Shown: positions 2,029-28,193 of the stretch, in pieces
Position numbering within the stretch: the stretch's first letter is position 1
Layout: the number at the start of each line of letters is the position of its first letter
NCBI GenBank assembly: GCA_016937995.1
Contig: JAFGVM010000024.1
Coordinates: forward strand, 309-64,308
Reading direction: 5' to 3'
Length of the DNA: 64,000 nucleotides
DNA from: Candidatus Delongbacteria bacterium
GTDB taxonomy: Bacteria > UBA4055
Program-made: the position numbers and the translations under genes
The notes under the pieces: model-generated
Database searches by the model: none
What the model was told of the DNA's origin: nothing
The model's input: only the letters and a program-made list of their open reading frames with translations

Positions 2029-2048
2029 AGTATTTGAGGTTAAATATA

Positions 2049-4344: not shown

Positions 4345-5694
4345 ATGAAGACGGATGTAGTAGTTATAGGCAGTAGCGCAGCCGGAATGGTTGTAGCTGC
4401 AACAGGTAAGAGAGTTCATCCTGAAAAAGATTTTACTGTGGTTACAAAACAACCAAAGACAATGATTCCATGCGGAATTCCATATATCTTTGGTTCTGTT
4501 GAAACCTCGAACAATAATATTCTTCCTGCAGAAAAAGTTTTTGAGCAGGCTGGAATTAAGGTAATACATGATGTGATTACTAAAATTGATCGAAAAAACA
4601 AAACTTGTGAATTAAAAAGCGGGGATAAATTAGAATACGATAAATTGGTCATCGCTACTGGTTCTACACCCCACAAACCTACGTGGCTAAAAGGACTTGA
4701 GAAAAATAATGTTTTCTTTGTTCCAAAGGATAAAATTTATCTTGATGATATGCAGGATCAATTAAAAGATTGTAAAGATATTGTTACGATCGGTGCAGGC
4801 TTCATTGGAGTTGAAATGTCTGATGAACTGAATAAAAACGGTAAGAATGTAACATTGATAGAAAAAATGCCTAATATTCTGGGATTAGCATTTGACAAAG
4901 AAATTTCAGAAAAAGTTGAAAAGATTTTAAAGGAAAGAGGAGTTAATCTTCTGACAGGAATAAGTGTTAAAGAAATTGTAGGATCAGAATCAGCTGAAGG
5001 TGTGCTACTCGATAATGGTGATATTTTAAAAGCAGATGCCATAATTATTTCGATGGGTTACAGACCAGATGTTAAATTAGCTAAAAAAGCAGATATTCCG
5101 TTAAACGATCAAGGATTTATTCGGGTGGATGAATATATGAGAACTTCAGACCCAGATATTTTTGCTATTGGTGACTGTGCTGAAAAAAGAGACTTTGTAA
5201 CTAGAAAACCAAATCCCGTAATGCTTGCTTCAACTGCTTGTGCGGAAGCTCGTACGGCTGGAATGAATCTATTTAAACTTTCTGTTATTAAAACTTTTAG
5301 CGGAACTATCTCTATCTTTTCTACAGCTATAGGAAATAGCGGTTTCGGAGTGGCCGGATTAACAGAATCTCAGGCGATTGCTGAAGGATTTGAAATTGTT
5401 ACAGGATATGCTGAAGGTATTGACCGACATCCAGGTTCTCTTGCAGATTCACACCAGCAGTGTGTTAAATTGATCGTTGGTAAAGAATCAGGTGTAATTC
5501 TCGGTGGAGAAGCTTGCGGTGGTTTATCAACAGGAGAGCTTGTAAATATGATCGGAATTGTTATTCAAAACAGAATGAATATCAATTCACTATTTACTGC
5601 TCAAATAGGTACTCACCCACTCCTAACAGCTTCACCTGCAGGATATCCGTTGTTGAAAGCAGTAGAAAATGCATTAATAAAATGGAGAAAGTAA
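4345..5694 (+). CDS. FAD-dependent pyridine nucleotide-disulfide oxidoreductase, CoA-disulfide reductase / NADH oxidase / NSR-like
   Basis: VVVIGSSAAG FAD fold and TIGAGFIGVEMSDEL NAD(P)H fold. There is a single Cys43 in MIPCGIPY, at the position of the redox-active Cys of the CoADR/Nox family. GDCA motif present. Confidence 0.8.
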   Translation: MKTDVVVIGSSAAGMVVAATGKRVHPEKDFTVVTKQPKTMIPCGIPYIFGSVETSNNNILPAEKVFEQAGIKVIHDVITKIDRKNKTCELKSGDKLEYDKLVIATGSTPHKPTWLKGLEKNNVFFVPKDKIYLDDMQDQLKDCKDIVTIGAGFIGVEMSDELNKNGKNVTLIEKMPNILGLAFDKEISEKVEKILKERGVNLLTGISVKEIVGSESAEGVLLDNGDILKADAIIISMGYRPDVKLAKKADIPLNDQGFIRVDEYMRTSDPDIFAIGDCAEKRDFVTRKPNPVMLASTACAEARTAGMNLFKLSVIKTFSGTISIFSTAIGNSGFGVAGLTESQAIAEGFEIVTGYAEGIDRHPGSLADSHQQCVKLIVGKESGVILGGEACGGLSTGELVNMIGIVIQNRMNINSLFTAQIGTHPLLTASPAGYPLLKAVENALIKWRK

Positions 5695-9600: not shown

Positions 9601-10950
9601 TAAATCTCCATCGTTATCATAATCTCCCCAAGCAGCTGACCCCTCCCATACTCCTTGTAATACAGCATTTACATCATTAAATATACCTGAATCATTTCTG
9701 TAGATTTTTGAAATATAATGAGCAGTTCCTTCATAATAATAACCAGTCAGTAAAATATCAAGATCGCCATCATTATCATAATCTCCCCATGAAACTGAAC
9801 CAGAAGAAACACCTGTTAATGCAGCATTGATATCTGAGAAAACTCCGTTATCATTTCTATATACCTTTGAAATATTACCGGAAGTTATACTTCCTGTAAG
9901 CAATAAATCTAAGTCTCCATCATTATCATAATCTCCCCAAGATACTGAGCTATAAACAGCACCTTGTAAACCTGCATTTATATCAAAAAAACTACCTGAA
10001 TCGTTTCTATATATCTTAGTAATCTTACCTTCAGATTCTGTATAACCTGACAGTACTAAATCAAGATCACCATCATTATCATAATCTCCCCAAGCAACTG
10101 ATCCGGAAGCAGCTCCTGGTAATCCTGCATTTATATCTGTAAAAATTCCAGAATCGTTTCTATATATTTTAGAGACATATACTGACCCTGTATAACCTGA
10201 CAGTACAACATCAAGATCTCCATCGTTATCATAATCTCCCCAAGAAACTGAACCAGAAGAAACACCTGTTAATGCAGCATTGATATCTGAGAAAACTCCG
10301 TTATCATTTCTATATACCTTTGAAATAAATCCTAAATCAGTTATTCCGGTCAATAAGATATCAAGATCCCCGTCATTATCATAATCTCCCCAAGCAACTG
10401 AGCTATCACTTACATCATCTATTCCAGCTTCTATATCTGTAAAATCTCCAAAATATCCTGTAACTATCACATCATCAATATACCAGTCATCACCATCAGT
10501 ATTAGCATAATTCCATCCTAAATACACATCTTGTCCCATATATGCATCAAGTGATATAGTGACCTGCTGATAAGTATCTTCGGGAGGAAGATCTGAATAC
10601 AGACTTGTCCAATGAATCTTATCTGTAGAAACACAAAAATCATGAACATCAGCATGATAATCATAATCAATATTCTCCCAAAATGTCACTTTTACAGAAT
10701 CATATATATCTATAGATATAAGAGGTGTAGTAACCCAGTCATCACTAGTACCCTGACCAGTATGGATCATTGAATATGTTCCTTTATAAGGTCTGTTCGC
10801 ACTTTTGGTAAATCCTCCACCAGTTGTTTGAAGTGACCAACCTGTAGGAGGAAAAGTTCCCTCAAAAGTTTCGAATATCAACTTAGAAGTACCACTTGCC
10901 ATTAAAAAAGTCACTGAACTCATCAGTAGTAGTATTAATGTTTTTTTCAT
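6694..10950 (-). CDS. Secreted 1418-aa FG-GAP/VCBS repeat protein with two 7-bladed propellers, FN3-like domains and an N-terminal choice-of-anchor-J-like domain
   Basis: It has a signal peptide. There are 14 copies of WGD(Y/F)DNDGDLD in two groups of seven, each followed by a module of the form GLSYN...GYRKVV...QA(V/I)D..FAGS. C-terminal FN3-like repeats follow. No T9SS CTD is recognisable. Confidence 0.9.
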   Translation of the reverse strand: MKKTLILLLMSSVTFLMASGTSKLIFETFEGTFPPTGWSLQTTGGGFTKSANRPYKGTYSMIHTGQGTSDDWVTTPLISIDIYDSVKVTFWENIDYDYHADVHDFCVSTDKIHWTSLYSDLPPEDTYQQVTISLDAYMGQDVYLGWNYANTDGDDWYIDDVIVTGYFGDFTDIEAGIDDVSDSSVAWGDYDNDGDLDILLTGITDLGFISKVYRNDNGVFSDINAALTGVSSGSVSWGDYDNDGDLDVVLSGYTGSVYVSKIYRNDSGIFTDINAGLPGAASGSVAWGDYDNDGDLDLVLSGYTESEGKITKIYRNDSGSFFDINAGLQGAVYSSVSWGDYDNDGDLDLLLTGSITSGNISKVYRNDNGVFSDINAALTGVSSGSVSWGDYDNDGDLDILLTGYYYEGTAHYISKIYRNDSGIFNDVNAVLQGVWEGSAAWGDYDNDGDLDILLTGSYYTKIYSNNSGVFTDINAGLVGVEYSSAAWGDYDNDGDLDILLSGDTGGSGSISKIYRNNSAPKNTPPSAPTGLSVVSDRFDATLTWNKSTDAQTPQDGLSYNLYISTTSGNDEIKSSMSDASNGYRKVVSLGNINQNTSYTIHDLRSGTYYWSVQAVDNGFAGSVFGTEQSFTFVGAFDDIEAGLMGATGSTEWGDYDNDGDLDILLTGYTGSGDISKIYRNDSGLFYDINAGLEGVYASSVAWGDYDNDGDLDILLTGYTGSGDVSKIYRNDSGVFTDINAGLEDVTVGAVAWGDYDNDGDLDILLTGYANSGMISNVYRNDSGTYTDINAGLIEVSKSSVDWGDYDNDGDLDILLTGNTGSEYISKIYRNDSGQFTDIGAGLAGVFIGSAVWGDYDNDGDLDVLLAGGINSDPYSISEIYQNNSGVFTDINAGLTGVSLCSAAWGDFDNDGDLDIILAGDSGSGYVSKVYRNDSGVFNGINTGITGIRSCHALWGDYDNDGDLDILIEGNTESDVRITKIYRNNSEISNTIPSKPSRLITKIENDSLKLSFNPALDLETPQNGLSYNIDVQVTGESINAGMSDLTDGYRKVVDIGNASQNTFYNINGFYTFLPQGGKTVSWKVQAIDHAFAGSEFASSPTFVIPSPRDLEITSKDGMTEADMLQWEYVYPEYLDYYVIQIDEDPEFSNPIEETMLLDKNSGSKITNEGKTFYIGQALNSLSQFDSLVNNTTYYWRMKPVYLGINRFTIFSETPASFIYKPTTGGSLPNAPISGFSPANDDIADSSPMISWGNATDPDGHAEDLRYTIELDSVNTFSSVLFSDTTEAGETFTQLTPSLDGGYRYYYHIKTIDADSQVSDWSAIQSFITVIPPSGVSITDDGANVNLTWDEMPINTKGIVYTVYSSEDPEAVFPASWTAVGLQLTTNSWSEPHSDSKKFYRVTAGSSSKGMVIESTNSEK
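7998..9033 (-). repeat. Intragenic repeat array: FG-GAP blades 8-14
   Basis: Approximate bounds from residues about 640-985. Neighbouring blades are near-identical at the DNA level (for example 8761-8850 versus 8881-8970). Confidence 0.8.
9393..10443 (-). repeat. Intragenic repeat array: FG-GAP blades 1-7 (about 150 bp period)
   Basis: Approximate bounds from protein residues about 170-520. Includes an exact 84-bp duplicate (9791-9874 = 10244-10327). Confidence 0.8.
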
Positions 10951-12510: not shown

Positions 12511-12957
12511 TTATATATTGATCCCGTAAGGATTTTGAATATATTCCCTGAGTTCTTTCACTTCAGTCTCTGACTGCTCAAGAACCTGTTTTAGAACATC
12601 ACCGATGGATAATATTCCAATTAGCTTTCCATCTTCAACTACAGGAAGATGCCTGACTCTCTTGTTGATCATCACATCCATTGCATAGCTTAATCTTTCA
12701 TCTTTAGTTGCAATGATGAGATCCTCTTTCGGAGTCATAATATCTTTGATCTTCATTGTTTCAGGATGACCGTCACATTTGTAAAGAACATCTCTCTCAG
12801 TTACGATACCCTGAAGTTTTGAACTGCCGTCAGTAACAACTAAAGATCCAACTCTATGTTTTCCGAATAACTCAACCGCTTCTTTTGCAGTACTGTTAAT
12901 ATCGATATTAAAAGTCTCTGTACTTTGTTTCTTCTTTAGTAAATCTGTTAATTTCAT
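12511..12957 (-). CDS. CBS-pair domain protein
   Basis: Two CBS motifs (VGSLVVTDG..LQGIVTERDV and VRHLPVVEDGKLIGILSIGDV). It is the last gene of the Mbx-like operon, 14 nt after the previous stop. Confidence 0.85.
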   Translation of the reverse strand: MKLTDLLKKKQSTETFNIDINSTAKEAVELFGKHRVGSLVVTDGSSKLQGIVTERDVLYKCDGHPETMKIKDIMTPKEDLIIATKDERLSYAMDVMINKRVRHLPVVEDGKLIGILSIGDVLKQVLEQSETEVKELREYIQNPYGINI

Positions 12958-12971
12958 ATCACATCTCCTGT

Positions 12972-14765
12972 TTATTTACTGCTCAAATATTCATCTATAC
13001 CTTTTGCTGCAGTATGACCGTTTGCAATACCGTTGATAACATCAGGACCTTTTATAATATCTCCACCAACGAATAACCAAGGAAGTGATGATTGATATTT
13101 TTCATTAACAACAATCCTGCCTCTATCGCTGAATTCAAGTTTATCTTTAATAGATTCTAGGTAAGATAAGTCCATACCCTGACCGATTGATTCAACAACC
13201 ATATCTGCCGGGAAGAATTTCTTTTGAGCTTCATCAAATTTAGGACTGAATCTTCCTTCTTCATCGAATACTGAAAGACATTTAACAACATTTAGACCTG
13301 TTACTTTACCGTTTTCAATTACAATCTCTTTCGGTCCCCATCCGGGATCAATGATACATTTTTCTTCTCTTGCTTCAACAACCTCTTCCCTGTCAGCAGG
13401 CATAATATCTTCAGTCTCAAGTGAAGTTGCAGTCACATCTACCTTACCATATTTTTTATTCTGCAGTCTTGCTAACGATCTGGTGATATCCATCGCAACA
13501 TTACCACCACCGATAACAACTACTTTTTTATCAACGCGGATCTCATTTCCAAGAGATATCTCTCTCAGAAGATCAGTTGCAAAGTAAACATTCTCATGTT
13601 CAGAACCCGGTATTCTTGTACTTCTACCAAGGTGCAAACCTGTGCCTGAGAAGACCGCATCATAATCTTGTTCAAGTTGTTCTATTGTAATATCTTTACC
13701 TATACGAACATTATATTCTATCTCGACACCGCAGGATAAAATATAGTTAATATCTTTATCGATCTGGTCGTAAGGAAGACGATATTCAGGAATACCGTAT
13801 CTCATCATTCCACCTGCAGCAGGAAGTGCTTCAAATATCTTAATTGCATATCCCATTCTTGATAAGTAATAAGCAGCTGAAAGGCCTGAAGGTCCTGAAC
13901 CTATTATTGCTACTTTTTTACTCTTTGGAGTGATCTCTAAGCCTCGTTCAAGAACTTCTTTATATTTACTCTCAGGAACTTGATCAGCGATATATCTTTT
14001 TAACCAACGAATAGATAAAGGTTCCCCTTTGTGACCGATCGCACAGACAGTTTCACACCTATGAGTACATATTCTACCACATATCTCCGGCAATGGATTA
14101 GTTTCATACATTATTCTGAGACCTTCTTCCATATCGTCATTTCTGATAGCTTTGATATATTCAGGGATAGCCATATGAGCAGGACAAGTTGCAGTACAAA
14201 GGCCACAATCAATACATCTGTCCGCTTCCGCTTCCGCCTGTTCTTTAGAATAACCTTTTACGAATTCAATGAATGATTTATCCCTTTCTTCAGGATGAAG
14301 CTCAGCCATGTCAACTCTATCGTAATTGTTAAGATCATAATTTTTAGGTTTAGTCCACCCAAGTTCATTATTATCCCACTCTTTTTTGTCATATCCGGGA
14401 ATAAATCTGAAAACATCCGGATCAGAATCGATCCAGGTATATTCGTTAGATAAAGTCAGAGAATTTGTCGAACAAACATCAACACATAAAGCACACCAGC
14501 AACACCTGCCGTAATCAACCATTGGCCTTAATCCACTGTCACCGTCTTTAGTTTCAATACCTTCAACAGGAACCATATCTATAGCAGCATTCTGACAAAT
14601 CTCTTCGCATGCTCCACAACCAATACATTTATCCAGCTCGTTTTTGTGGAATCCTCTATATCTTGGAGCACCCGGTCTGTCATTGAACGGATCTTTAACA
14701 GTAACCGGATCCTTAAATACTTTCTTCCAAGCTAAAAATGGTGATAATACATCTTTTATACTCAT
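12972..14765 (-). CDS. Fusion of a NuoI/MbxN-like 2x[4Fe-4S] ferredoxin with a GltD/SudA/NfnB-like NAD(P)H-FAD oxidoreductase
   Basis: N-terminal part: PRYRGFHKNELDKCIGCGACEEIC...YGRCCWCALCVDVC (NuoI-type). The rest: DRCIDCGLCTATCP...NPLPEICGRICTHRCETVC...KVAIIGSGPSGLSAAYYL...AAGGMMRYGIPEYRLP...VVVIGGGNVAMD...FVGGD (GltD-type). Confidence 0.85.
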   Translation of the reverse strand: MSIKDVLSPFLAWKKVFKDPVTVKDPFNDRPGAPRYRGFHKNELDKCIGCGACEEICQNAAIDMVPVEGIETKDGDSGLRPMVDYGRCCWCALCVDVCSTNSLTLSNEYTWIDSDPDVFRFIPGYDKKEWDNNELGWTKPKNYDLNNYDRVDMAELHPEERDKSFIEFVKGYSKEQAEAEADRCIDCGLCTATCPAHMAIPEYIKAIRNDDMEEGLRIMYETNPLPEICGRICTHRCETVCAIGHKGEPLSIRWLKRYIADQVPESKYKEVLERGLEITPKSKKVAIIGSGPSGLSAAYYLSRMGYAIKIFEALPAAGGMMRYGIPEYRLPYDQIDKDINYILSCGVEIEYNVRIGKDITIEQLEQDYDAVFSGTGLHLGRSTRIPGSEHENVYFATDLLREISLGNEIRVDKKVVVIGGGNVAMDITRSLARLQNKKYGKVDVTATSLETEDIMPADREEVVEAREEKCIIDPGWGPKEIVIENGKVTGLNVVKCLSVFDEEGRFSPKFDEAQKKFFPADMVVESIGQGMDLSYLESIKDKLEFSDRGRIVVNEKYQSSLPWLFVGGDIIKGPDVINGIANGHTAAKGIDEYLSSK

Positions 14766-14802
14766 GTTAATCCTCTATATAAAAACTTTCTATTCTTGGT
14801 TT

Positions 14803-14879
14803 AGAGTTTTGAGTTGTTGGTTTTGAGTTATTGGGAACTTATCCTCACAACTCACAACCCGCAACTCACAACTATCTCT
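14803..14879. repeat. Long imperfect hairpin built from heptamer repeats (TTTTGAG / CTCACAA) in an intercistronic spacer
   Basis: The left arm agagttttgagttgttggttttgagttattggg is approximately complementary to the right arm cctcacaactcacaacccgcaactcacaactatctct. It overlaps the stop codon of the NuoD-like gene. Confidence 0.6.
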
Positions 14880-16050
14880 CAATTTCCGGTGGGCATGTAG
14901 CTAATGATACCATCAACGATGAAACATCTGATATATTAGCGTTTACCAATATTTTTTCAAGTAACACCATTGCTGAATTATAACTTGGTCCTCTAAGATT
15001 TATTCTTCTAGGGTATTCAGTACCGTCAGTTACCATATAGAAACCGTATTCACCTCTGGATGATTCTATTCTTTTGTAAGTTTCACCTTTAGGTATTTTC
15101 CAATGAAGAACATTCGGTGTCTTGGCTCTGATCTCACCTTTTTCCGGCATTTTAGCCATGATCTGCCTTATAAGATCTACTGACGCTTGAAGATCATGCC
15201 ATCTTACCCTTGATCTTGCATAAATATCTGAATCTTTCTCAGTATGAGGTTCAAAGTCTAATTTATCATATTTCAAATACGGATAATCTTTTCTGACATC
15301 TCTCATTATTCCAGCTGCTCTGGCATTAGGACCAACAACACTGTATTTATCGATCCAATCCTTTTCAATTACTCCAACACCTTTTGTTCTCTTCTTGAAA
15401 ACAGCATTACTGAACATCAAATTATCTATATCAACGACAAATTCATCAATTTTTTTTAATACTTCTTCCATTCTTTCTTTGAATCCGGAAGGTAATAGTC
15501 CTCTAACTCCACCAGGTGCAATATACATGTGATAAACCCTGCCACCTGTAAGTTCTTCAAATCTGTCCAGCATCAGGTCCCTGATATAAACACCCCACTG
15601 AACTCCCATTCCAAGACTCATAGTCCCACCTTGTCCGGGAACTCCTCTAAGCAGTATAGTTACTCTTGCCATTTCAAGCACTAATGTTCTTAGCCATTCT
15701 GCCATCTCTGGGACCTCAATACCTCCAAGTTCTTCAACAGATGCAGCAAGCAAATATTCATTAATATCAGGCTCGGGAACGCACATTCTGATGCAGATAG
15801 GAAAACACTGGATGAATTTTCTTCTTTCCATCAATTTTTCAAAAGCTCTGTACAGATAACCTACATGTGTCTTTGATTTAATAACTTCATCACCGGAAAC
15901 TGTAAGTTCAAGTGCCATATTTCCTGTAACTCCAGGATGGTTCGGCCCTTGCCAGATCTTTACATATTTTTGGGAATCAAGATCGAAATCTAATGTTCCG
16001 TCATCTTTCATAGTAGGAAATTTTGATCTGTCTTCTTTTATATTGAACAT
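14872..16050 (-). CDS. NuoD / MbxL-like large subunit without canonical NiFe-binding motifs
   Basis: Group-4-hydrogenase/NuoD fold: HVGYLYRAFEKLME, ELTGGRVYHMYIAPGGV, SRGEYGFYMV. The L1 position reads PICIRMCVPEP, not RxCGxCxxxH. The C-terminus reads SLATCPPEIER, not DPCxxCxxR. Confidence 0.8.
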   Translation of the reverse strand: MFNIKEDRSKFPTMKDDGTLDFDLDSQKYVKIWQGPNHPGVTGNMALELTVSGDEVIKSKTHVGYLYRAFEKLMERRKFIQCFPICIRMCVPEPDINEYLLAASVEELGGIEVPEMAEWLRTLVLEMARVTILLRGVPGQGGTMSLGMGVQWGVYIRDLMLDRFEELTGGRVYHMYIAPGGVRGLLPSGFKERMEEVLKKIDEFVVDIDNLMFSNAVFKKRTKGVGVIEKDWIDKYSVVGPNARAAGIMRDVRKDYPYLKYDKLDFEPHTEKDSDIYARSRVRWHDLQASVDLIRQIMAKMPEKGEIRAKTPNVLHWKIPKGETYKRIESSRGEYGFYMVTDGTEYPRRINLRGPSYNSAMVLLEKILVNANISDVSSLMVSLATCPPEIER

Positions 16051-16081
16051 CTACTGTCCTCTAATTTTGTTTTATTATTAT

Positions 16082-16120
16082 GTGCTGTGAGACGTTGCGG
16101 GGCAACGTCTCTACGAGCAC
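16082..16120. repeat. Strong GC-rich hairpin element between the nuoC-like and nuoD-like genes
   Basis: GAGACGTTGC-ggg-GCAACGTCTC (16089-16111), extended by GTGCT/AGCAC. It shares GCAACGTCTCTAC with 24032-24044 and TGTGAGACG with 56412-56420. Confidence 0.75.
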
Positions 16121-16684
16121 CTAACCCTGATCCGGATACAATTTTGATTTCATGTATTCCTTTGTATCATAACTCTTCCTTCCTTCTCTCGGGAAGAAAT
16201 TATCTGTAGCATATTTCAATGTATCAAAATCTCTTCTCATAGGTGGGATATCATCCCAGTCTTCCAGTACAAAATCATCATTAACACCGGGACTGCCGGG
16301 AAAATCGATGCCGAATAATTCTTTAATTTCTCTCTGATCTGTTTGTGCATGTATCCATAGATGATGAATAGAATCCATAACAGGATTATCTCTGTCAATA
16401 TCAACTCGGATAGCAATATCATATTTGTTTACAGGATGATTTAAAATGTATGTCAGCTGAAATTTGTTCTCTTCCAGCCAGTCAACACTTGACAGCATTA
16501 TCAAATGTGTAAAACCTTCAAGCTCTTTCAGATAATTCAGAATATCGACAAGTAATTTTTTCCCGATAGAAAAAAACAGCAGATCATCCCTTTTCTGAAG
16601 AACATCCGTGATCTCATATTTACTTTTTATCTTTTCTAATATTTCATTCATATCTTTTAATCCTATTTTAATTCCTATATCCAT
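16121..16684 (-). CDS. NuoC / MbxK-like subunit
   Basis: LTYILNHP...DIAIRVDI...FGIDFPGSP...DWDDIPPMRRDF is typical of the 30-kDa NuoC family. An alternative start is at 16651. Confidence 0.8.
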   Translation of the reverse strand: MDIGIKIGLKDMNEILEKIKSKYEITDVLQKRDDLLFFSIGKKLLVDILNYLKELEGFTHLIMLSSVDWLEENKFQLTYILNHPVNKYDIAIRVDIDRDNPVMDSIHHLWIHAQTDQREIKELFGIDFPGSPGVNDDFVLEDWDDIPPMRRDFDTLKYATDNFFPREGRKSYDTKEYMKSKLYPDQG

Positions 16685-16814
16685 ATAATCCCAAAATTGC
16701 TTTAAACGAAGATTTACAAGGAAGAGTGATATTACTTCGAAATGGAGCTTGGTTAACCCAAGTGACTTGAGAAGGAATTCACTCTGACGAAGTAAATCAA
16801 AGTTTAAAAAATTT
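16685..16814 (-). other. 130-nt structured spacer inside the operon (crossing complementary segments)
   Basis: On the plus strand AGAGTGA (16723-29) is complementary to TCACTCT (16779-85). TTACTTCG (16732-39) is complementary to CGAAGTAA (16788-95). A CTTGG-ttaac-CCAAG hairpin lies between them. Confidence 0.4.
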
Positions 16815-17459
16815 TTACCAGTTGTAATCGGGCATATCCCATCCTTTGATTACCTTCTTTTGATTAGCCTTATACCAGTCAAATCTCTCAGCATAATCAT
16901 TTGCACCTTCGGCTTTACCTGCTCTGATCCTTTTCTTCAGCTCTACAAACCCTGAAAGAATTGCTTCAGGTCTTGGCATACATCCCGTGATATAAACATC
17001 TACCGGAATATAGTGATCCAGTCTGTTGATAGTATTAAAACTATCATAATACATTCCACCGTTAATCGTACAACTGCCTAATGCTATTATATACTTAGGA
17101 CCCTGCATTTGCTCATAAGCTCTGATAACTCTTTTCAAAGTTTTCACAGCCAAATATCCTGAAATAATAAACACACCTGCTTGTCTTGGAGTAGGTCTCA
17201 TCTGAACACCGTATCTGAACATATCAAATCTTGGAGTTGTCAAAGGCGGTAATTCAATACTACCACACCCTGTTCCCCATCCAAGTACCCATAGAGAATT
17301 CGATCTTGCCCAGTTGAAGAATTTTTCAAGTAACGGATGTGCAGGCTCCTGAACTTCAGGTCTTTTATCACAAAAGTATTCTTTCATCGGATCAACTGTA
17401 AATACTTCACCATCAGGTGCGGTTACAGTTCTCTTTTTTAAATCATCCATTCGAGTCAT
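16815..17459 (-). CDS. NuoB / MbxJ-like small subunit
   Basis: Contains WGTGCGSIEL, LGSCTINGG and ITGCMPRPE (NuoB-type motifs). Only one Cys is present where NuoB has CC. Confidence 0.85.
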   Translation of the reverse strand: MTRMDDLKKRTVTAPDGEVFTVDPMKEYFCDKRPEVQEPAHPLLEKFFNWARSNSLWVLGWGTGCGSIELPPLTTPRFDMFRYGVQMRPTPRQAGVFIISGYLAVKTLKRVIRAYEQMQGPKYIIALGSCTINGGMYYDSFNTINRLDHYIPVDVYITGCMPRPEAILSGFVELKKRIRAGKAEGANDYAERFDWYKANQKKVIKGWDMPDYNW

Positions 17460-17474
17460 TTATTTAAACCTCTA

Positions 17475-18395
17475 TTAGTTAATATATGTCGCATAAATCA
17501 CACCTAAAACACCAATTACTAAAGGTACTTTCACGAACCATGCCACTGATTGATCTACTCTGTATCTCGGAAATACTACTCCAACGAACACTGTGGTAAA
17601 GTATATGAAGAAAGTTTTTACTATAAATTCTATCCAGTTCGTAGCTCCACCAAAGAATAAATTCATAAAAAGTGCAGATTCTACAATATGAAGGATAGCT
17701 CTGTTGGATTGAAGCATTCCAAGATAAGTAGAGTGATATTCAGTTGGTGGACCGATCGGTATTTCCTGAGGTGCCATTACTACATTAAAAGGAGCATGTC
17801 GCATAATTCCGAGAAAAGATAACATTCCTGCTAGAGTCGCAACGGGATTCTGAAATAATGTCCAGTGAAGGATTCCACCTTGTTGTGCTGCTACTATATT
17901 ATAAACTGATAATGTTTGATATTGAATTGCAATAGCAATTATAGCGAGTGTAAATGAAATCTCAACAGTCGTAAATTGTGCAAGCCCTCTACTGATCCCG
18001 ATAGTAGAATTAGGATGTCCCGCTTCTCCGGCACCTAAAGCCATTCCAAGCATTCCGAAAAATTGGAAGTACATTAGTAATACAATATCACCTGTGAATG
18101 AAAAATTCTTAAAATATATTGAACCGAATATCATAGGCATGAATAAGAAAAGTCCTATTCCGCCACCCAATCTGAAAATTGGTCCAAGATAAAACATAAT
18201 ACCATGAGTTATTTGTGATCTTTTAGCCAAATTTTTAATAATGTCAAAATATGACTGATATACCGGAATCCCATATCTTCCTGCTACTCTGGCAACTATC
18301 TTCCTCATAACCCCTGACTGAAGAAGCCCGTAGTTAAAAACTATGAATAAACCTAATAGGGAATATAGTATTCTTGATGTAAGTGTCAATTCCAT
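17475..18395 (-). CDS. NuoH / MbxM-like membrane subunit
   Basis: Polytopic 306-aa protein at the NuoH/HyfC/MbhM-type operon position. It overlaps the upstream gene by 1 nt. Confidence 0.75.
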   Translation of the reverse strand: MELTLTSRILYSLLGLFIVFNYGLLQSGVMRKIVARVAGRYGIPVYQSYFDIIKNLAKRSQITHGIMFYLGPIFRLGGGIGLFLFMPMIFGSIYFKNFSFTGDIVLLMYFQFFGMLGMALGAGEAGHPNSTIGISRGLAQFTTVEISFTLAIIAIAIQYQTLSVYNIVAAQQGGILHWTLFQNPVATLAGMLSFLGIMRHAPFNVVMAPQEIPIGPPTEYHSTYLGMLQSNRAILHIVESALFMNLFFGGATNWIEFIVKTFFIYFTTVFVGVVFPRYRVDQSVAWFVKVPLVIGVLGVIYATYIN

Positions 18396-21300
18396 TAAAA
18401 TATCCCTCCGTTAAGAATAAAGTAGAAAAATACGACAAAACCGATTATGTGCATAATATATACCTGTGCATTACCGTTATAGAATTTTCTGAAGAAATCT
18501 GAACTCGAATGAAAAAGATCAGTTATAAAATTCCAGAAATTTGTTACTAGTGGCAAGACAAGAAAACCAAGAGCTTTTCTGTAATGTGAGAACATATTAT
18601 ATGAAAAATGTGCAGTTTGAGGACTTTCAGGTCTTTCGGCAGAATATACAATGTTGAACATTTCAACTTTTGTTGCTTTCCTGCTTGCAAATAATAGGAA
18701 TCCTAATAAAACAGCGAACATGACACATACTATTATCATTATATAGAACGGATCCCAAACACCGAATAATTTACCATTTACAAAAGTTGATGCGGCATCA
18801 CCATTCCAGACAACAGTGTTCTCAGGTAATATTTCTTTAAAATATAAACCTACTTTCTCCAGTATCATCCTTGGTTTTGATGATAAGACCATCAGAGTAG
18901 CTATTATCAAATATTGAGGTATCAAATACCAAACTGATACTTCTGTCATTTTTCTATGCTTATCTTTTATAGGTCCTAAGAAAATCGAATATATTAGTTT
19001 GAAAAGATATAAGAAAGCTACAACTCCAGAGAAGGCAATAATTGCACCCTGGAAATACCATCCTTTTAAGATAAAAGCGTTATAAAGAAGCCATTTTCCA
19101 CCGAATCCTGCCAATGGAGGAACACCTGACAATGCAATTATACCGATAAGAACTGAAATAAAAGACATCGGCATTTTTTTTATCAAACCACCCATTTCAT
19201 ACATTTTATGAGTTTTGAGTTTTAATACTATCGCACCTACTGCAAGGAATAATAAGGCTTTATACAAGAAATGAGTGATCGAATACCAAATTGCTGCCAG
19301 CCAGCCTACATTTGTCATTATTGCTAGAGCAAATAAGATATAACCTAACTGAGCTATACTTGAATAAGCCAGTAATTTCTTCGCATCTTCCTGGAATGAA
19401 GCTATTAAATTTCCAAGTAAAGCTGTAATTGCTCCTACCCAGCCTAATATGTAAAATAGATTTGAAACATCGTTATTTCTCATTGCTATGAATAGAATTA
19501 TCAGTCCGAATACTCCGGCTTTTAGTAGTACTGCAGAAACCATTGGAGAAACATCACTTTCTGCTTCAGCGTGAGCTCCCGGCAACCAGATATGAAGTCC
19601 GATAGAAGCAGTTTTTGTCATAAAACCCAGTGCAAGAAGTATAAATACCATAGTTGCATAAATATGAACCTCCGACAATGAAGTTAATAAAATACTTCCG
19701 GTTTCAGCTCCGGATAAAGCAAATCCGAATAAGATCAGATAAGCACCACCTGCAGAGAATAATATATAACTCAATGCGTGAGACATTGATCTTTTACCTC
19801 TCAGGATCAGGAAGTACGAACCTGCTGTCATTATTTCCCAGGCAAAAAAGAATTGAAAGAAAGTTTCAGCTTCGATCAATCCGATCAGTCCTACATACAT
19901 CATAGCAGCAACAGGATAGAATCCTATTCTCTTCCCTTTTACGCTATAACCGGGAATAAATGTTAATATTCCACCGACTAAGAATATCAAAGCGAATATC
20001 AGCTTTAAAGTATCTAAACCGGGAACAAGTATATATCCATAGTATGATACGGCGATCATAACCAGTGTATTCTTAATATATACTGGTAAGAAGTCTATTA
20101 AGAATAGTATTCCCACAAATGCTAAAGGTATGAAATTAATTGACAGACCAGCATCAAATGATCTGGTAATATAGAACCCTGCGACATAAAGCAATAGAGT
20201 AACAATATAGACCGGATGTAACTGATGTTGAGGTTTTTCTACTTTTTCTTCACTGTCTTCCAGTTTAAGAATGTAACCGAACCATCTGAATAAATAAAGG
20301 ACTTCAAGTATCGATGCTAATATCACCAGACTTATCCATAAGAACGATCCATTCTCAGCCAGTATCATTACTAAAGACCATTTTGCGGCTAAAGATGGAA
20401 ATGGAGGGAAACCCATCAGTGCTAAGATAAATGTTCCGAACATGAAAATCAGAATAGGATGTTTCTTTATCTTTACCCAGTCTTGAATTTTCTCAGCTTT
20501 TACAATTCCTGACAACCAGAACAAACCTGCTTTAGCTAAGAAATGACTGATAAGTAATCCAAAGAATATTTTCTCAAAATTATCACCGAGTATATCTTTT
20601 GATGCTATTACAAATACCAATAATCCGATCTGACCTATCGAAGAATAACCTAACAATCTATTCGTACTCTTCTGCATAATTGCGAAAAGGTTTGATACTA
20701 CAAAAGTAAGCACACCGATTATAACGATCATCTTTGTTAGATCAATTGATGCTAAAGGAAGTACTTTGTATAGAACAAATAACAAAGCCGTTGCAGATGT
20801 TGCTGAGATCATTGCAGAAATGCCTGTATCAGATCCTTCATAAACATCTAAGGCCCAACCGTTAGCAGGGAAAACTTTTAATTCAATTACAACAGAGAAT
20901 ATCAGTATGAATACGCCAACAAATAATATTTGTGATGAACCTGCAGCTGATACAGCAGCGATCATTCCATCTAAGTTCAAAGTTCCTGTTTTAGAATATA
21001 TAAGGATTATACCAAGAAGTAAAAATACTGATGCAATCCCACCTGCAATCATATATTTAAATCCTGCAGACAGAGATTTTAATCTTAAGTCCATACCTAT
21101 AAGGATATACGTTGCAATTGATGTAATTTCCAGGAAAACAAAAATATTGAATATATCTCTGGTCAATACTAATCCGTTCATTCCGAGTATGAAGAGTAAA
21201 AATACTACTAATGCCTGAATTCCGTTCTCTGCAAAATATTTAAACGAATAGATCGCTCCAAGTAAAGCACCAAAATTGATCAATGTAATTAGAACCGCTT

Positions 21301-21538
21301 CATTTAACCCCATCTGTAAATTGATCGACATCGGAGGTTTAAATCCGGCAGTGAAGATCTGTACAGCTTGTTGACCATCGATCAGAAAAGCTGACAACCA
21401 TTGGTAACTGATCGCAGTAACTGCTATTATTCCTAAAAAGAATATTGTTACTGTTACTTTTATTCCGGCCTTATTTATTGACGGCAATAAAAATCCAAGA
21501 CCTAGTAAGATTGCTATTATATATATTGGATTTACCAT
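18395..21538 (-). CDS. Fused double MrpD/NuoN-type antiporter-like subunit (MbxH+H' equivalent), 1047 aa
   Basis: There are two proton-conducting-transporter modules. The first has GWALDVYEGSDTG...LLGYSSIGQIG. The second has WLPGAHAEAESDVSPMVSAVLLKAG...LLAYSSIAQLG. Confidence 0.85.
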   Translation of the reverse strand: MVNPIYIIAILLGLGFLLPSINKAGIKVTVTIFFLGIIAVTAISYQWLSAFLIDGQQAVQIFTAGFKPPMSINLQMGLNEAVLITLINFGALLGAIYSFKYFAENGIQALVVFLLFILGMNGLVLTRDIFNIFVFLEITSIATYILIGMDLRLKSLSAGFKYMIAGGIASVFLLLGIILIYSKTGTLNLDGMIAAVSAAGSSQILFVGVFILIFSVVIELKVFPANGWALDVYEGSDTGISAMISATSATALLFVLYKVLPLASIDLTKMIVIIGVLTFVVSNLFAIMQKSTNRLLGYSSIGQIGLLVFVIASKDILGDNFEKIFFGLLISHFLAKAGLFWLSGIVKAEKIQDWVKIKKHPILIFMFGTFILALMGFPPFPSLAAKWSLVMILAENGSFLWISLVILASILEVLYLFRWFGYILKLEDSEEKVEKPQHQLHPVYIVTLLLYVAGFYITRSFDAGLSINFIPLAFVGILFLIDFLPVYIKNTLVMIAVSYYGYILVPGLDTLKLIFALIFLVGGILTFIPGYSVKGKRIGFYPVAAMMYVGLIGLIEAETFFQFFFAWEIMTAGSYFLILRGKRSMSHALSYILFSAGGAYLILFGFALSGAETGSILLTSLSEVHIYATMVFILLALGFMTKTASIGLHIWLPGAHAEAESDVSPMVSAVLLKAGVFGLIILFIAMRNNDVSNLFYILGWVGAITALLGNLIASFQEDAKKLLAYSSIAQLGYILFALAIMTNVGWLAAIWYSITHFLYKALLFLAVGAIVLKLKTHKMYEMGGLIKKMPMSFISVLIGIIALSGVPPLAGFGGKWLLYNAFILKGWYFQGAIIAFSGVVAFLYLFKLIYSIFLGPIKDKHRKMTEVSVWYLIPQYLIIATLMVLSSKPRMILEKVGLYFKEILPENTVVWNGDAASTFVNGKLFGVWDPFYIMIIVCVMFAVLLGFLLFASRKATKVEMFNIVYSAERPESPQTAHFSYNMFSHYRKALGFLVLPLVTNFWNFITDLFHSSSDFFRKFYNGNAQVYIMHIIGFVVFFYFILNGGIF

Positions 21539-21894
21539 TTTAAGTCCTTGTAATCGTTAATTGACAATGATTTCTTCTGTTGGTATAATCTTATTACGAA
21601 GGTTAGCATCAGAGCATTTACCGCCACGCCAATAACAATAGCTGTAAGAACCAGTGCCTGAGGTACAGGATCAACTATTAACGAAGATGCCTTGCTAAGC
21701 TCTACCGCAGAGTCTAAGATAGGAGCAGTTCTTCCGTCTATAAATCCAAAAGCGACCATCACAAGCTGAACACCTGTCTCTACTATTGCTAATCCTAAAA
21801 TTATCTTTATCATATTCTTTTGGGTCAACATTCCCCAGAAACCTATCAATATGAGAGCAAATCCTGTTATATGAACTATAGTTGTTATATTCAT
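21532..21894 (-). CDS. MrpC/MnhC (NuoK-like) subunit
   Basis: 120 aa with 3 TM segments, including GLAIVETGVQLVMVAF. The operon position fits MrpC. Confidence 0.75.
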   Translation of the reverse strand: MNITTIVHITGFALILIGFWGMLTQKNMIKIILGLAIVETGVQLVMVAFGFIDGRTAPILDSAVELSKASSLIVDPVPQALVLTAIVIGVAVNALMLTFVIRLYQQKKSLSINDYKDLKW

Positions 21895-22592
21895 TCAAGC
21901 TCCCCCTTCATATTGTCCAATATACTCGCCAGTTCAGTTCCTACTTTCAATCCTACAAGTGTATAGATCAGTGGTATAGTTCCAGCACTTAAAATAGTTC
22001 CAAAAGTTCCAAGTGGTAAAATTCTATTATCCAGGAAGTTATCTGCTCCGAGTATAACGAGACCTAAAACACCGATAAGGACATAGAAGATTCCCGAAAA
22101 TGATTCTATTAAAACAAATACTTTATGATTGATCTTAAATGAACTATCTGCCAAGAACATTAACATTACAGCAGATGCTATAGCTGCTCCACCCTGAAAT
22201 CCACCACCAGGTGATAAATGCCCATTTATGAATATATATGCACCAAACATTGTTATTATTGGTACCAACAGTTTTGAACCTGTCTTCAATATTTCACTGG
22301 CTGCTCTATTCTTTATTCCTGAATCATTTTTCTTTTTCTTTCTTCTGAGTAATAAAGCAATACCAGTTCCTGCCATAAATAATACAGTAACTTCACCCAG
22401 TGTATCTAAGCCTCTATAAGTTACAACAATTGCAGTAACCAGATTCATTGCTCCAAGATCTGATGCTCCCTGTTCTGCATAAGTCTTTGCAACACCTGTC
22501 AGATCATAATTCGGTGCAACATTCGTCGCTACTTTTAATAATATGAAAAACAGTGATATTACTAATAATAAAGGTATCAGTCTTTTAATCAT
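21891..22592 (-). CDS. MrpB/MnhB-domain subunit
   Basis: NLVTAIVVTYRGLDTLGEVTVLF is the MnhB signature. ATG at 22592 is preceded by GGAGGA. The track start at 22628 overlaps the previous gene more deeply. Confidence 0.75.
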   Translation of the reverse strand: MIKRLIPLLLVISLFFILLKVATNVAPNYDLTGVAKTYAEQGASDLGAMNLVTAIVVTYRGLDTLGEVTVLFMAGTGIALLLRRKKKKNDSGIKNRAASEILKTGSKLLVPIITMFGAYIFINGHLSPGGGFQGGAAIASAVMLMFLADSSFKINHKVFVLIESFSGIFYVLIGVLGLVILGADNFLDNRILPLGTFGTILSAGTIPLIYTLVGLKVGTELASILDNMKGELE

Positions 22593-22845
22593 TTTCTTCC
22601 TCCACATCTTTTGTTTTGTGAAGTGCATATAAAAATATCAAAGTAGATAAACCTGCACCGATAGCAGCTTCTGTCATTGCAACATCAGGTGCCTGCATCA
22701 ATAGATACAATATACTTGCAAATAAACTTACTACTCCTACTGCGATGATCGAAGATATCAAATCCTTCACATGCATTGCTAATACTGCCGCAATGATCAT
22801 TGCTAAACCCATCAGTATGAAAATGCCTTGTTGTAATTCCATCAA
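22585..22845 (-). CDS. MrpB N-terminal-like (DUF4040/MbhD-like) subunit
   Basis: 86 aa with 3 TM segments, including LLMQAPDVAMTEAAIGAGLST. There is a 4-nt overlap with the mrpG-like gene. Confidence 0.7.
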   Translation of the reverse strand: MMELQQGIFILMGLAMIIAAVLAMHVKDLISSIIAVGVVSLFASILYLLMQAPDVAMTEAAIGAGLSTLIFLYALHKTKDVEEEND

Positions 22846-23186
22846 TCTACCTCCACTTCGGTACTTTCTTTCTCTTTCAGCTTATCAGCTACAGAACCTT
22901 TTGTCAAAGGAATTCCTTTGAAATGTGCTGCTCTAGCTAATGCATGACTTGAAATAGGATTTGTTAAAGCTATGAACATTATTATTACGAGTATCTGACC
23001 GATCCATTCGTAATGACAGATTCCGATTCCTAATAATGTTAAAATTGTTCCTAAAGTAGTTGCTTTAGTTCCTGCCTGCATCCTGTTGTAAAGATCTGGC
23101 ATTCTAAATACTCCCAAAGCTCCGAGAAATAAGAATATTGAACCTATTAATGTTATTATTGATCCTAAAATTCTGTACCATTCCAT
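22842..23186 (-). CDS. MrpG/MnhG subunit
   Basis: Contains GALGVFRMPDLYNRMQAGTKATTLG...ISSHALARAA. Confidence 0.8.
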   Translation of the reverse strand: MEWYRILGSIITLIGSIFLFLGALGVFRMPDLYNRMQAGTKATTLGTILTLLGIGICHYEWIGQILVIIMFIALTNPISSHALARAAHFKGIPLTKGSVADKLKEKESTEVEVD

Positions 23187-23187
23187 T

Positions 23188-23457
23188 TTATAGCCCCCCT
23201 TCTAAATAACGGGCTACTGCGACTACACCTATGAAACTTAAGATAGCATAGACCATTCCTACATCCAGGAATATCACCCTTTCTGACATACACGCTATCA
23301 GTGTAATTAATGAAATGGAAATCACTGTAAATGTATCCAGCGCTACGACTCTATCTGCCATACTTGGACCTATGATCAGTCTCAGTGTCGCAAGTATTAT
23401 CCCTGCTGATACAAAATAAGTTGATATTTGTAATAATATCTCCGGTAAGTTAGCCAA
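23188..23457 (-). CDS. MrpF/MnhF subunit
   Basis: Contains LRLIIGPSMADRVVALDT...VVAVARYLE. Confidence 0.8.
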   Translation of the reverse strand: MANLPEILLQISTYFVSAGIILATLRLIIGPSMADRVVALDTFTVISISLITLIACMSERVIFLDVGMVYAILSFIGVVAVARYLEGGL

Positions 23458-23938
23458 AGATCACCTCCAGATATTTTTCGAAATTTGCCACGATTTTCTC
23501 TGTTGCTGTTTTTTCATCGATATTAGTAACATCGATCCAGTGTATATATAATATATCTTCATCTATATCTACTGTCAAAGTTCCGGGAGTTAATGTTATT
23601 GAATTTGCCAATATCATTCGACCCATTGCTGATTTCAATTTTGTTTTCACTGTAACTATCCCTGGATTGATAGGGATCTTAGGAGAAACAACTCTTCGAG
23701 CTACATCGAAATTTGCCTTTATTATTTCAATGAATAGGAATATTACATACCAGATAGAATATATCCACTTTTTGGGAGACAACATTGGTTTGAACAACGA
23801 TCTGTTATAGATAATACTGATAACTAAAGCTATGAAGGCAATTATCAATATATTATACAAATCAGTAGTACCTGTCCAAATAAAATAGAACAATGTGAGA
23901 ATCCCCGTCGAAAATATCACCTTTATAATTCTATCCAT
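23450..23938 (-). CDS. MrpE/MnhE subunit
   Basis: Contains ANSITLTPGTLTVDI..ILYIHWI. ATG at 23938 follows GAGGT. The longer track ORF (to 24076) reads through intergenic repeat elements. Confidence 0.75.
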   Translation of the reverse strand: MDRIIKVIFSTGILTLFYFIWTGTTDLYNILIIAFIALVISIIYNRSLFKPMLSPKKWIYSIWYVIFLFIEIIKANFDVARRVVSPKIPINPGIVTVKTKLKSAMGRMILANSITLTPGTLTVDIDEDILYIHWIDVTNIDEKTATEKIVANFEKYLEVIFG

Positions 23939-23967
23939 ATATACCTCTAAATCGTTATTTGTTGTTT

Positions 23968-24044
23968 TGTCATTGCGATCCCGATAAATCGGGAGTGGCA
24001 ATCTTGTTTTCGTAATTGTAAGACCTTGCAGCGCAACGTCTCTA
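23968..24044. repeat. Two hairpin elements in the MarR-mrpE spacer
   Basis: TGTCATTGCGA-[TCCCGATAAATCGGGA]-GTGGCAATC (23968-24003) and AGACcTTGC-agc-GCAAcGTCT (24021-24041), which abuts the MarR stop codon. Confidence 0.75.
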
Positions 24045-24530
24045 CTAACAATTATCGTTTCCTGACAAATTCTCACTGAATTTTTCTTTGTCCCTTTGCA
24101 ACTTTGATGACCACACTTTATTAAGAAGATTTAGACCATTATATATTGTATCCTGATCTTGTTCATTAACTTCATCAAAGAGATCTTTGCAATAATTTAT
24201 GGTTATCTTTTTTAATTCTTTAACAAATACATTTCCTTTATCGGTCAGAGTAACATTTATTCCTCTTCTGTCATCTGGGGCCATATCTCTGCGCAATAGA
24301 CCTGCTTCTTCCAAAGCAGCAACGATCCTTGTAACTCCACCGGAAGTTATATTCAATCTCTCGGCCAGATCCTTGACAGATATACTTTCTGATTCAAAAT
24401 ACTGCTTCAGACAATTTAATTCAGAGCAAGTAAGATCCATTGATCTTGCAACTTTTTTATCTTTTAATTGACAATAAAGCTTCATTGAGCTTATTATGTT
24501 TGAAATTTCGTTTACCCGACTTTGATTCAT
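24045..24530 (-). CDS. MarR-family regulator heading the Mbx-like operon
   Basis: wHTH segment SVKDLAERLNITSGGVTRIVAALEEAGLLRRDMAPDDRRGINVTLTDKG. Three N-terminal Cys (LYCQL, TCSELNC) are conserved with the paralog at 1-260. Confidence 0.85.
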   Translation of the reverse strand: MNQSRVNEISNIISSMKLYCQLKDKKVARSMDLTCSELNCLKQYFESESISVKDLAERLNITSGGVTRIVAALEEAGLLRRDMAPDDRRGINVTLTDKGNVFVKELKKITINYCKDLFDEVNEQDQDTIYNGLNLLNKVWSSKLQRDKEKFSENLSGNDNC

Positions 24531-24556: not shown

Positions 24557-24585
24557 AATTTATTGATCTGCTCAACAATTGTCAA
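24557..24585 (-). promoter_or_regulatory. Sigma70-type promoter / putative MarR operator of the Mbx-like operon
   Basis: Minus strand reads TTGACA (24585-24580), a 17-nt spacer, then TAAATT (24562-24557). By hand count 23 of 29 positions are identical to 289-317. Confidence 0.55.
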
Positions 24586-28072: not shown

Positions 28073-28091
28073 TTTAATGCCTTGTTTTTCT

Positions 28092-28160: not shown

Positions 28161-28193
28161 TACATTTTTAATTATTCATTATCAATTATTAAT

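Follow-up and report, generated by a model that had tools for sequence, protein, structure and literature searches.

How might pyridine nucleotides be connected to the iron-sulfur chain of an Mrp-type ion-translocating complex that is encoded without NuoE, NuoF and NuoG? This question is raised by a gene in a stretch of 64,000 nucleotides from a Candidatus Delongbacteria bacterium (contig JAFGVM010000024.1, positions 309 to 64,308 of the forward strand, assembly GCA_016937995.1), which is referred to as the window and provides all coordinates given below. The gene (12972..14765, minus strand) has an ATG start and encodes a protein of 597 amino acids. It is very probably the MbsN/MbxN subunit of a bacterial Mrp-Mbx complex, which corresponds to the membrane-bound sulfane reductase (MBS) of archaea. 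The subunit is permanently joined to a GltD/NfnB-class flavoprotein and belongs to a widespread family that has already been described.

Two modules in one polypeptide

A preliminary description made from the sequence alone had divided this open reading frame into two modules, and the same anatomy was found with Pfam, NCBIfam and PDB searches. Pfam placed Fer4_7 at residues 46-101, Fer4_20 at residues 162-266 (E-value 9.6e-31) and Pyr_redox_2 at residues 283-577 (1.7e-23). NCBIfam models of NuoI matched residues 5-125 (1.5e-27) and models of GltD/GltA matched residues from about 150 to 597. A further model, NF010590/PRK13984 ('putative oxidoreductase'), spans residues 1-596 of 597 and scored 908.3 bits against a curated cut-off of 946. 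The best PDB match of the N-terminal part was MbsN of Pyrococcus furiosus (6U8Y_N, 7.8e-24), followed by NuoI (about 1e-14) and MbhN (1e-7). The C-terminal part was closest to NfnB/Stn-type chains (about 1e-77), ahead of GltD (1e-50) and dihydropyrimidine dehydrogenase (DPD, 1e-36). In the PDB search, no solved chain covered the whole fusion. The features of the gene are as follows.

12972..14765, minus strand: fusion gene, MbsN/MbxN (NuoI-type) subunit plus GltD/NfnB-class NAD(P)H-FAD-2x[4Fe-4S] module (Pfam, NCBIfam, PDB)
14397..14765, minus strand: MbsN-type module, residues 1-123, with C47, C50, C53, C57, C88, C91, C94 and C98 for two [4Fe-4S] clusters (6U8Y_N, alignment with archaeal MbsN)
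14322..14396, minus strand: inter-module linker, residues 124-148, about 25 amino acids, in place of the variable C-terminal tail of unfused MbsN (alignments)
12972..14321, minus strand: GltD/NfnB-class module, residues 149-597 and stop codon (Pfam, PDB, alignment)
13416..13424, minus strand: S448-L449-E450, end of strand beta-2 of the NAD(P)H fold (alignment; predicted local distance difference test score, pLDDT, about 90)

The motifs quoted in the preliminary description are all present in the translation: PRYRGFH (as APRYRGFH), CIGCGACEEIC and CCWCALCVDVC. The N-terminal module has the hallmarks of NuoI and MbsN, i.e., two CxxCxxCxxxC(P) motifs (C47/50/53/57 and C88/91/94/98) and an N-terminal PxT..P..YRG(F)H segment, by which such subunits pack against those of the NuoD and NuoH types. 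Residues P20, T22, P26, Y36, R37 and G38 are invariant between the fusion and unfused archaeal MbsN. The C-terminal module has those of the GltD/NfnB class. Its Fer4_20 domain carries two cysteine clusters (C184, C187, C190, C194 and C229, C233, C237, C241), and both Rossmann folds are intact, the FAD fold with its GxGxxG motif at G289-G294 and the NAD(P)H fold with its GGGxxAxD motif at G419-D426. In an alignment of 81 homologs, all 16 cluster cysteines of the fusion were invariant. Rows P0145 and P0160 of alignment A1, which are frameshifted or garbled predictions, were left out.

The junction was located by comparison with unfused relatives of the N-module, which are archaeal: MbsN of Thermococcus and Pyrococcus (202-230 amino acids), of Thermoprotei (186-192) and of Odin/Asgard archaea (188-213). 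Homology with these proteins runs from the N-terminus to the invariant P123, beyond which lies the variable archaeal tail. The N-module is a genuine MbxN/NuoI-type connecting subunit and no mere extension of GltD. Since MbsN homology ends at P123 and NfnB homology, by PDB comparison, begins at residue 149, residues 124-148 are a real linker of about 25 residues between two complete modules. The length of this linker is conserved among homologs. The best 120 database homologs, which stem from independent assemblies, all measure 593-610 amino acids and match the query over 99-100% of its length; the closest is from a metagenome-assembled genome of Candidatus Delongbacteria (92% identity). Cultured carriers of the full-length fusion include Prolixibacter, Thermosipho, Tropicimonas, Sinisalibacter and Aliiruegeria. 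Several matches of about 170-215 amino acids obtained in a search of representative sequences were rejected as unfused relatives; they are fragments of the fusion, since the same clusters contain members of 621-628 amino acids.

The nucleotide-binding motif of the flavoprotein module is informative on the probable electron donor. In Rossmann folds, an acidic residue at the end of strand beta-2 indicates NAD, whereas an arginine pair indicates NADP. The Y-R-R motif that recognizes the 2'-phosphate, and with it confers NADPH specificity, is absent from the window module. It is found in the NADPH-dependent GltD of Escherichia coli, in NfnI-L (NfnB) and in chain 9BOV_A at the position where the window protein has SLE. 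Because of the SLE motif and this general rule, the window enzyme is predicted to prefer NADH. Among the 81 homologs, 29 carry YRR and 52 carry (S/A/C)LE, which by the same rule suggests a division of the family into NADPH (YRR) and NADH (xLE) lineages; the cultured carrier Prolixibacter bellariivorans is of the xLE type. An AlphaFold2 model of the fusion was built on 25 close homologs, and only the secondary structure of the SLE region, where pLDDT was about 90, was used. The second iron-sulfur motif of the fusion has four cysteines, as in the non-bifurcating GltD of E. coli. The position of C229 is cysteine in both these proteins, threonine in NfnI-L and isoleucine in 9BOV_A.

The operon and the class of the complex

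The fusion gene closes the series of redox genes in a transcription unit on the minus strand that runs from 24530 to 12511, with the gene order MarR-MnhE-MnhF-MnhG-MbxD-MnhB-MnhC-HH'-NuoH-NuoB-NuoC-NuoD-fusion-CBS. The other features of the unit are listed below; unless stated otherwise, identification is by profile match.

24585..24557, minus strand: promoter-like site upstream of the MarR gene
24045..24530, minus strand: MarR-family regulator, first gene of the unit
23450..24076, minus strand: MnhE/MbsA, listed reading frame with GTG start, 208 amino acids (Pfam MNHE match from residue 59)
23188..23457, minus strand: MnhF/MbsB (NCBIfam/profile match)
22842..23186, minus strand: MnhG/MbsC
22585..22845, minus strand: MbxD/MbsD (DUF4040-type)
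21891..22628, minus strand: MnhB/MbsE
21532..21894, minus strand: MnhC/MbsG (NuoK-like)
18395..21538, minus strand: fused MbsH and MbsH', two MrpD/NuoN/M-like antiporter-type subunits, 1047 amino acids (PRK08377 at residues 4-459, PRK08668 at residues 459-1038)
17475..18395, minus strand: MbsM (NuoH-like) membrane anchor
16815..17459, minus strand: MbsJ (NuoB-like; 6U8Y_J)
16121..16684, minus strand: MbsK (NuoC-like)
14872..16050, minus strand: MbsL (NuoD-like), 392 amino acids (6U8Y_L, full length)
12511..12957, minus strand: CBS-pair protein, 148 amino acids, starting 14 bp past the fusion stop codon
12377..12398, minus strand: terminator-like hairpin and T-run, end of the operon

All 13 MBS/Mbx subunit types are present, in the order A-B-C-D-E-G-H-H'-M-J-K-L-N. 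Subunits H and H' are fused in the window, and likewise in Prolixibacter and Cloacimonadota. No NuoE, NuoF, NuoG or NfnA-like gene was found in the window operon, in agreement with the earlier view that the fusion gene closes an Mrp/Mbx operon lacking NuoEFG. Since a genuine MbxN-type module and a GltD module are thus joined in such an operon, a direct connection of pyridine nucleotides to its iron-sulfur chain is a sound idea.

The membrane-proximal subunits identify the class of the complex. MBS is defined by a proximal [4Fe-4S] cluster held by three cysteines of MbsJ (C28, C93 and C123), with C25 near the cluster but dispensable, and its MbsL keeps two vestigial NiFe cysteines and lacks the quinone ligands of complex I (PMC7684303). 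For both MbsL (4.9e-86) and MbsJ (1.8e-61) of the window, the best PDB match was 6U8Y, far above the subunits of complex I and MBH. Window MbsJ has the three cysteines of the proximal cluster (C65, C130 and C160) and a glycine at the position of C25. Relatives always retain the equivalents of C28, C93 and C123, and 62 of 62 sequences have glycine in place of C25. Window MbsL has T42 and V91 at the positions of Nqo4 residues H38 and Y87, i.e., it has no quinone ligands; in relatives the Y87 equivalent is valine in 77 of 77 and the H38 equivalent threonine in 71 of 77. Of the NiFe ligands, only the vestigial C90 and C386 are left. Quinone reductase activity was rejected because the equivalents of H38 and Y87 are absent, and hydrogenase activity because the NiFe site is incomplete. 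The partner subunits are orthologs of their P. furiosus MBS counterparts, and the catalytic signature of the bacterial complexes is that of MBS, if anything purer.

The domain architecture recurs widely. In a scan of one genome per species, the fused N-module and Fer4_20 region (query residues 1-270) was found in at least 254 genomes. In all 84 loci with enough flanking DNA, drawn from more than 10 phyla, the fusion gene ends an MnhE...NuoD series of identical order. These loci are from Bacteroidota, Chlorobiota, Spirochaetota, Cloacimonadota, Fermentibacterota, Alpha-, Beta- and Gammaproteobacteria, Acidobacteriota, Calditrichota, Halanaerobiales, Leptospira and Delongbacteria, among others. 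The family also occurs in Thermotogota, where the Thermosipho melanesiensis protein ABR31076.1 is 54% identical to the window fusion over its full length.

The gene that follows the fusion is not always the same. At 56 loci, 2.5 kb or more of DNA past the fusion gene was available, and a ferritin/rubrerythrin-like gene (about 150 amino acids) lies directly 3' of it in 20 of them (e.g., L003, 3313-3636, and L082). A DHOD-like FMN protein (NF005741/PRK07565, 365 bits) is encoded 20-190 bp past it in 13 (e.g., L001, 11987-12970, and L027), and a CBS-pair gene lies directly 3' in nine, including the window, Cloacimonadota and some Bacteroidales. In one homolog (P0135, 764 amino acids) a ferritin-like extension is attached to the C-terminus of the GltD module. 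The DHOD-like protein and the fusion together recreate the domain set of dihydropyrimidine dehydrogenase or glutamate synthase, which hints at a second, FMN-based substrate site in the lineages concerned.

An operon from another Delongbacteria genome (L064, Candidatus Delongbacteria UBA12480, DMTS01000005.1) looks like a mosaic when compared with window positions 12972-24076. Its Mrp half (MnhE, F, G, MbxD, MnhB and MnhC) is 68-90% identical to the window, and its redox half (HH', NuoH, B, C, D and fusion) is 45-62% identical and of the YRR type, not SLE. This pattern suggests that two Mbx lineages have exchanged modules, with the boundary at MnhC|HH'.

At the upstream end of the window operon, the listed MnhE frame and the MarR gene overlap. 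Translation of MnhE probably begins at the ATG codon of residue 47 (about 23938), which would give about 162 amino acids; the Prolixibacter ortholog has 164. The MarR protein (24045-24530, minus strand) has an N-terminal C-x4-C pair (CSELNC) and could, speculatively, be a redox or sulfur sensor. Divergent from this unit, a sigma-54 enhancer-binding protein is encoded at 24705-25859 (plus strand); its AAA+ domain begins at residue 19 and it has no N-terminal sensor domain. At the other end, the CBS-pair gene is probably co-transcribed with the fusion gene, and its product may regulate the complex by sensing adenine nucleotides.

Proposed electron path and competing explanations

From the modules, cofactor ligands, operon linkage and MBS-type active-site signature observed above, we infer an electron path, an acceptor, a direction and a coupling to ions. 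The GltD module would be a one-polypeptide stand-in for the NuoEFG N-module of complex I. A hydride would be transferred from NADH (NADPH in the YRR sister lineages) to FAD, and single electrons would be relayed first by the two [4Fe-4S] clusters in the GltD module and next by the two in the MbsN module to the three-cysteine proximal cluster of MbsJ, at the MbsJ/L/M interface. There an MBS-type acceptor would be reduced, most likely sulfane sulfur or polysulfide, with quinone and protons excluded, and this reduction would drive Na+/H+ translocation in the Mrp-like membrane arm. We regard this complete sequence, from NADH to ion translocation, as plausible but still tentative.

The energetics would be tight but feasible. 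Ferredoxin has a potential of about -480 mV, and NADH one of -320 mV. Per two electrons, MBS gains 42 kJ/mol with ferredoxin and MBH gains 12 kJ/mol (PMC8165549). Replacement of ferredoxin by NADH would leave about 11 kJ/mol, similar to MBH, which still pumps. Because this is near equilibrium, the reaction may be reversible, the ion-motive force then driving reduction of NAD(P)+.

Expression data from the literature connect related clusters with sulfur. In Thermotoga maritima, mbxA is upregulated 4.4-fold with S0 (PMC9431562), and S0 also induces the MBS cluster of bacterium 3DAC (PMC10356935). A 'putative Mrp-Mbx' of Endoriftia is co-expressed with sulfur-globule proteins and genes of the reductive tricarboxylic acid cycle, its direction being stated there as unknown. 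In the genome scan, the family was also present in aerobic Rhodobacteraceae and in sulfur oxidizers. Since such hosts do little ferredoxin-based catabolism, NAD(P)H is favored over ferredoxin as the cytoplasmic partner.

Several observations weigh against the proposed NADH-driven mechanism. Literature searches found no biochemistry or structure of any fused bacterial complex, and the acceptor is suggested by similarity to MBS only. Under standard conditions, little driving force is available between NADH and polysulfide, and many host lineages, such as Bacteroidales and Rhodobacteraceae, are not known sulfur reducers. The accessory genes (ferritin/rubrerythrin-like, DHOD-like FMN and CBS) depend on the lineage and hint at other or additional partners. 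Reading SLE and YRR as NADH and NADPH preference follows a rule of thumb. In the AlphaFold2 model (predicted template modeling score 0.63) the N-module had a pLDDT below 35, too poor for inter-cluster distances. Finally, the vestigial MbsL cysteines vary, the C85 equivalent being cysteine in 56 of 77 relatives and the C385 equivalent in 32 of 77; in MBS these cysteines are dispensable.

If the mechanism is true, it would represent a second, independent route by which pyridine nucleotides are plugged into a complex I-type ion pump. The family is found in hundreds of mesophilic bacterial species, among them Bacteroidales of sediments and the gut, Cloacimonadota, spirochaetes, marine Rhodobacteraceae and sulfur-oxidizing symbionts. 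The mechanism would also bear on how complex I gained its NADH module and on the role of unexplained 'Mrp-Mbx' clusters that appear in metabolic reconstructions, e.g., that of Endoriftia.

A broader proposal, which we consider rather unlikely in its full extent, is that the family is a reversible ion-translocating NAD(P)H:sulfane-sulfur oxidoreductase and a widespread minimal analogue of complex I. A GltD-type polypeptide would have independently replaced NuoEFG, and NADH-type (xLE) and NADPH-type (YRR) lineages would have diverged. Fermenters and sulfur oxidizers would then use it in opposite directions. Fermenters would dump NAD(P)H electrons on sulfane sulfur and export Na+/H+, and sulfur-oxidizing Gammaproteobacteria and symbionts (Thiodiazotropha, Sedimenticolaceae, Endoriftia) would run it in reverse, obtaining NAD(P)H from reduced sulfur by means of the ion-motive force.

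The strongest competitor of an NADH-driven pump is the original Mbx hypothesis of an Rnf-like ferredoxin:NAD(P)+ oxidoreductase, in which electrons flow from ferredoxin through the iron-sulfur chain to FAD and NAD(P)+ and the energy difference exports ions. Degli Esposti (2015) takes the gltD-like subunit as the site of NAD(P)+ reduction (PMC4758237), and the Mesotoga genome paper models Mbx as a Na+-exporting ferredoxin:NAD(P)+ oxidoreductase. Many hosts are fermenters that produce reduced ferredoxin, the driving force from ferredoxin to NAD+ exceeds that from NADH to polysulfide, and GltD/NfnB modules are reversible (PMC8097209). However, coupling in MBS, MBH and complex I is tied to the chemistry of the proximal cluster and a three-loop interface (PMC7684303). 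Because ferredoxin, which docks at MbsN in MBS, and FAD are both at the distal end, electron transfer from ferredoxin to NAD+ would bypass this coupling site, and nothing would remain for the invariant three-cysteine cluster of catalytic type and its pocket to do. Furthermore, archaeal Mbx, for which the hypothesis was first proposed, proved to be a sulfane reductase (PMC7684303, PMC8165549), the family occurs in aerobic Rhodobacteraceae and sulfur oxidizers, and T. maritima already has a characterized Rnf (PMC9431562). We consider the Rnf-like direction unlikely.

Still less probable is that the NAD(P)H-FAD module has a protective or regulatory side function. Electrons from NAD(P)H would go to a rubrerythrin- or ferritin-like peroxidase guarding the O2-sensitive clusters, or to the DHOD-like FMN subunit, and the main flow would be from ferredoxin to sulfur as in archaeal MBS. 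The ferritin/rubrerythrin-like (20 of 56) and DHOD-like (13 of 56) genes next to the fusion and the ferritin-like extension of P0135 agree with such a role, as does the rubrerythrin gene that Degli Esposti (2015) noted at the operon end (PMC4758237). Against it, the accessory genes are specific to lineages, the window having CBS only, whereas the fusion with all 16 cysteines is universal, and the permanent covalent attachment to MbsN indicates that the module is central to the entry or exit of electrons.

A bifurcating, confurcating or dual-donor module, in which an NfnB-like FAD splits or merges electrons among NAD(P)H, ferredoxin and the membrane-proximal acceptor, was also weighed. The C-terminal module is indeed closer to bifurcating NfnB-/Stn-type chains than to GltD (about 1e-77 versus 1e-50), and the FAD of NfnB is a proven bifurcation site (PMC8097209). 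On the other hand, bifurcation requires a second, high-potential exit, the [2Fe-2S] cluster and FAD of NfnA. No NfnA-like gene was present in the operon across the 84 loci, and none directly downstream of the fusion in the window or the 56 loci. The second iron-sulfur motif moreover follows the four-cysteine GltD pattern, where NfnI-L and 9BOV_A have Thr and Ile at the C229 position. Because of the missing NfnA-like branch and the GltD-like ligand pattern, this explanation is quite improbable.

An artefact would mean that misassembly or a frameshift had merged two neighboring genes, or that an ordinary GltD carries a ferredoxin extension of unrelated origin. Nothing was found in favor of this, the window itself being one assembly, and it can be dismissed as having a negligible probability, since full-length homologs with conserved linker length and invariant cysteines occur in many independent assemblies and cultured isolates, at least 254 genomes carry the fused region, and in the archaeal alignment the N-module is orthologous to MbsN past the ferredoxin core.

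Of the three mechanisms raised in the preliminary description, the NAD(P)H-driven pump therefore fits best; Rnf-like coupling is possible but agrees poorly with the coupling logic of complex I, and bifurcation is unlikely in view of the missing NfnA-like exit and the GltD-type ligands.

Some other genes in the window deserve mention. At 4345-5694 (plus strand), 7 kb from the operon, lies a gene for a 449-amino-acid pyridine-nucleotide-disulfide oxidoreductase of the CoA-disulfide reductase/NSR/NADH oxidase family, with 6PFZ, 4FX9 and 3KD9 as best PDB matches and a conserved catalytic cysteine. In P. furiosus and T. maritima, NSR is the partner of MBS/MBX and responds to S0 (PMC9431562). A tandem pair of MinD/ParA-type P-loop ATPases, both containing an inserted 2x[4Fe-4S] ferredoxin domain, is encoded at 2034-3787 (plus strand), and a very large FG-GAP-repeat protein of 1418 amino acids at 6694-10950 (minus strand). 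At 27116-31748 (minus strand), MTHFR adjoins a full-length cobalamin-dependent methionine synthase (MetH). A reading frame of 1035 amino acids and its neighbors of 384 and 400 amino acids (32946-36053, minus strand) had no Pfam match.

Comparison with known systems

The preliminary description had left open whether the fusion was new. The fusion as such is already known: Degli Esposti (2015; PMC4758237) described mbx-like operons, in Thermotoga and proteobacteria, in which a gltD-related flavoprotein, regarded as the NAD(P)+ site, takes the place of NuoI and which often terminate with rubrerythrin. The full-length NCBIfam model (NF010590/PRK13984) and the 54% identical Thermosipho protein lead to the same conclusion. 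The present analysis adds how broadly the family is distributed and how strictly it is linked to the operon, the presence of the three-cysteine proximal cluster throughout, and the division into xLE and YRR types. Compared with the Mrp-Mbx operons of Thermotogota and Proteobacteria in which a GltD-type protein replaces NuoI, the window operon belongs to the same family and has the same gene order, but its host is Delongbacteria-like, its copy carries SLE instead of YRR, and a CBS-pair gene instead of rubrerythrin comes next.

Rnf may have a comparable physiological role, connecting the NAD(H) pool with another redox pool through an ion-motive force, but shares no homology. With NfnB/SudA/StnA and with GltD and DPD (PreT), the C-terminal module shares the fold with FAD and 2x[4Fe-4S] (E-values 1e-77 to 1e-36), and the four-cysteine second motif is common to GltD and the window module. 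It differs from NfnB, GltD and PreT in having no NfnA, GltB or PreA partner; a covalently attached NuoI-type di-cluster domain is present instead, and SLE replaces YRR.

The MBS of P. furiosus (6U8Y) is similar in its 13 subunit types, gene order, three-cysteine cluster, lack of quinone ligands and of a NiFe site, and duplicated H subunit. Whereas archaeal MbsN is unfused (202-230 amino acids) and ferredoxin-fed, the window MbsN carries an NAD(P)H-FAD module. In addition, H and H' form one protein of 1047 amino acids in the window, and the C25 of MbsJ is lost.

The proposed likeness to complex I, with its NuoEFG and NuoI, would lie in the oxidation of NADH at a flavin, followed by electron transfer through an iron-sulfur chain to a NuoB-type cluster beside the membrane arm. 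The flavoprotein folds are unrelated, since the window module belongs to the GltD class with two dinucleotide-binding folds and FAD, whereas NuoF uses FMN. The acceptor would be other than quinone, the equivalents of H38 and Y87 being absent, and a single polypeptide in the window corresponds to three subunits in complex I.

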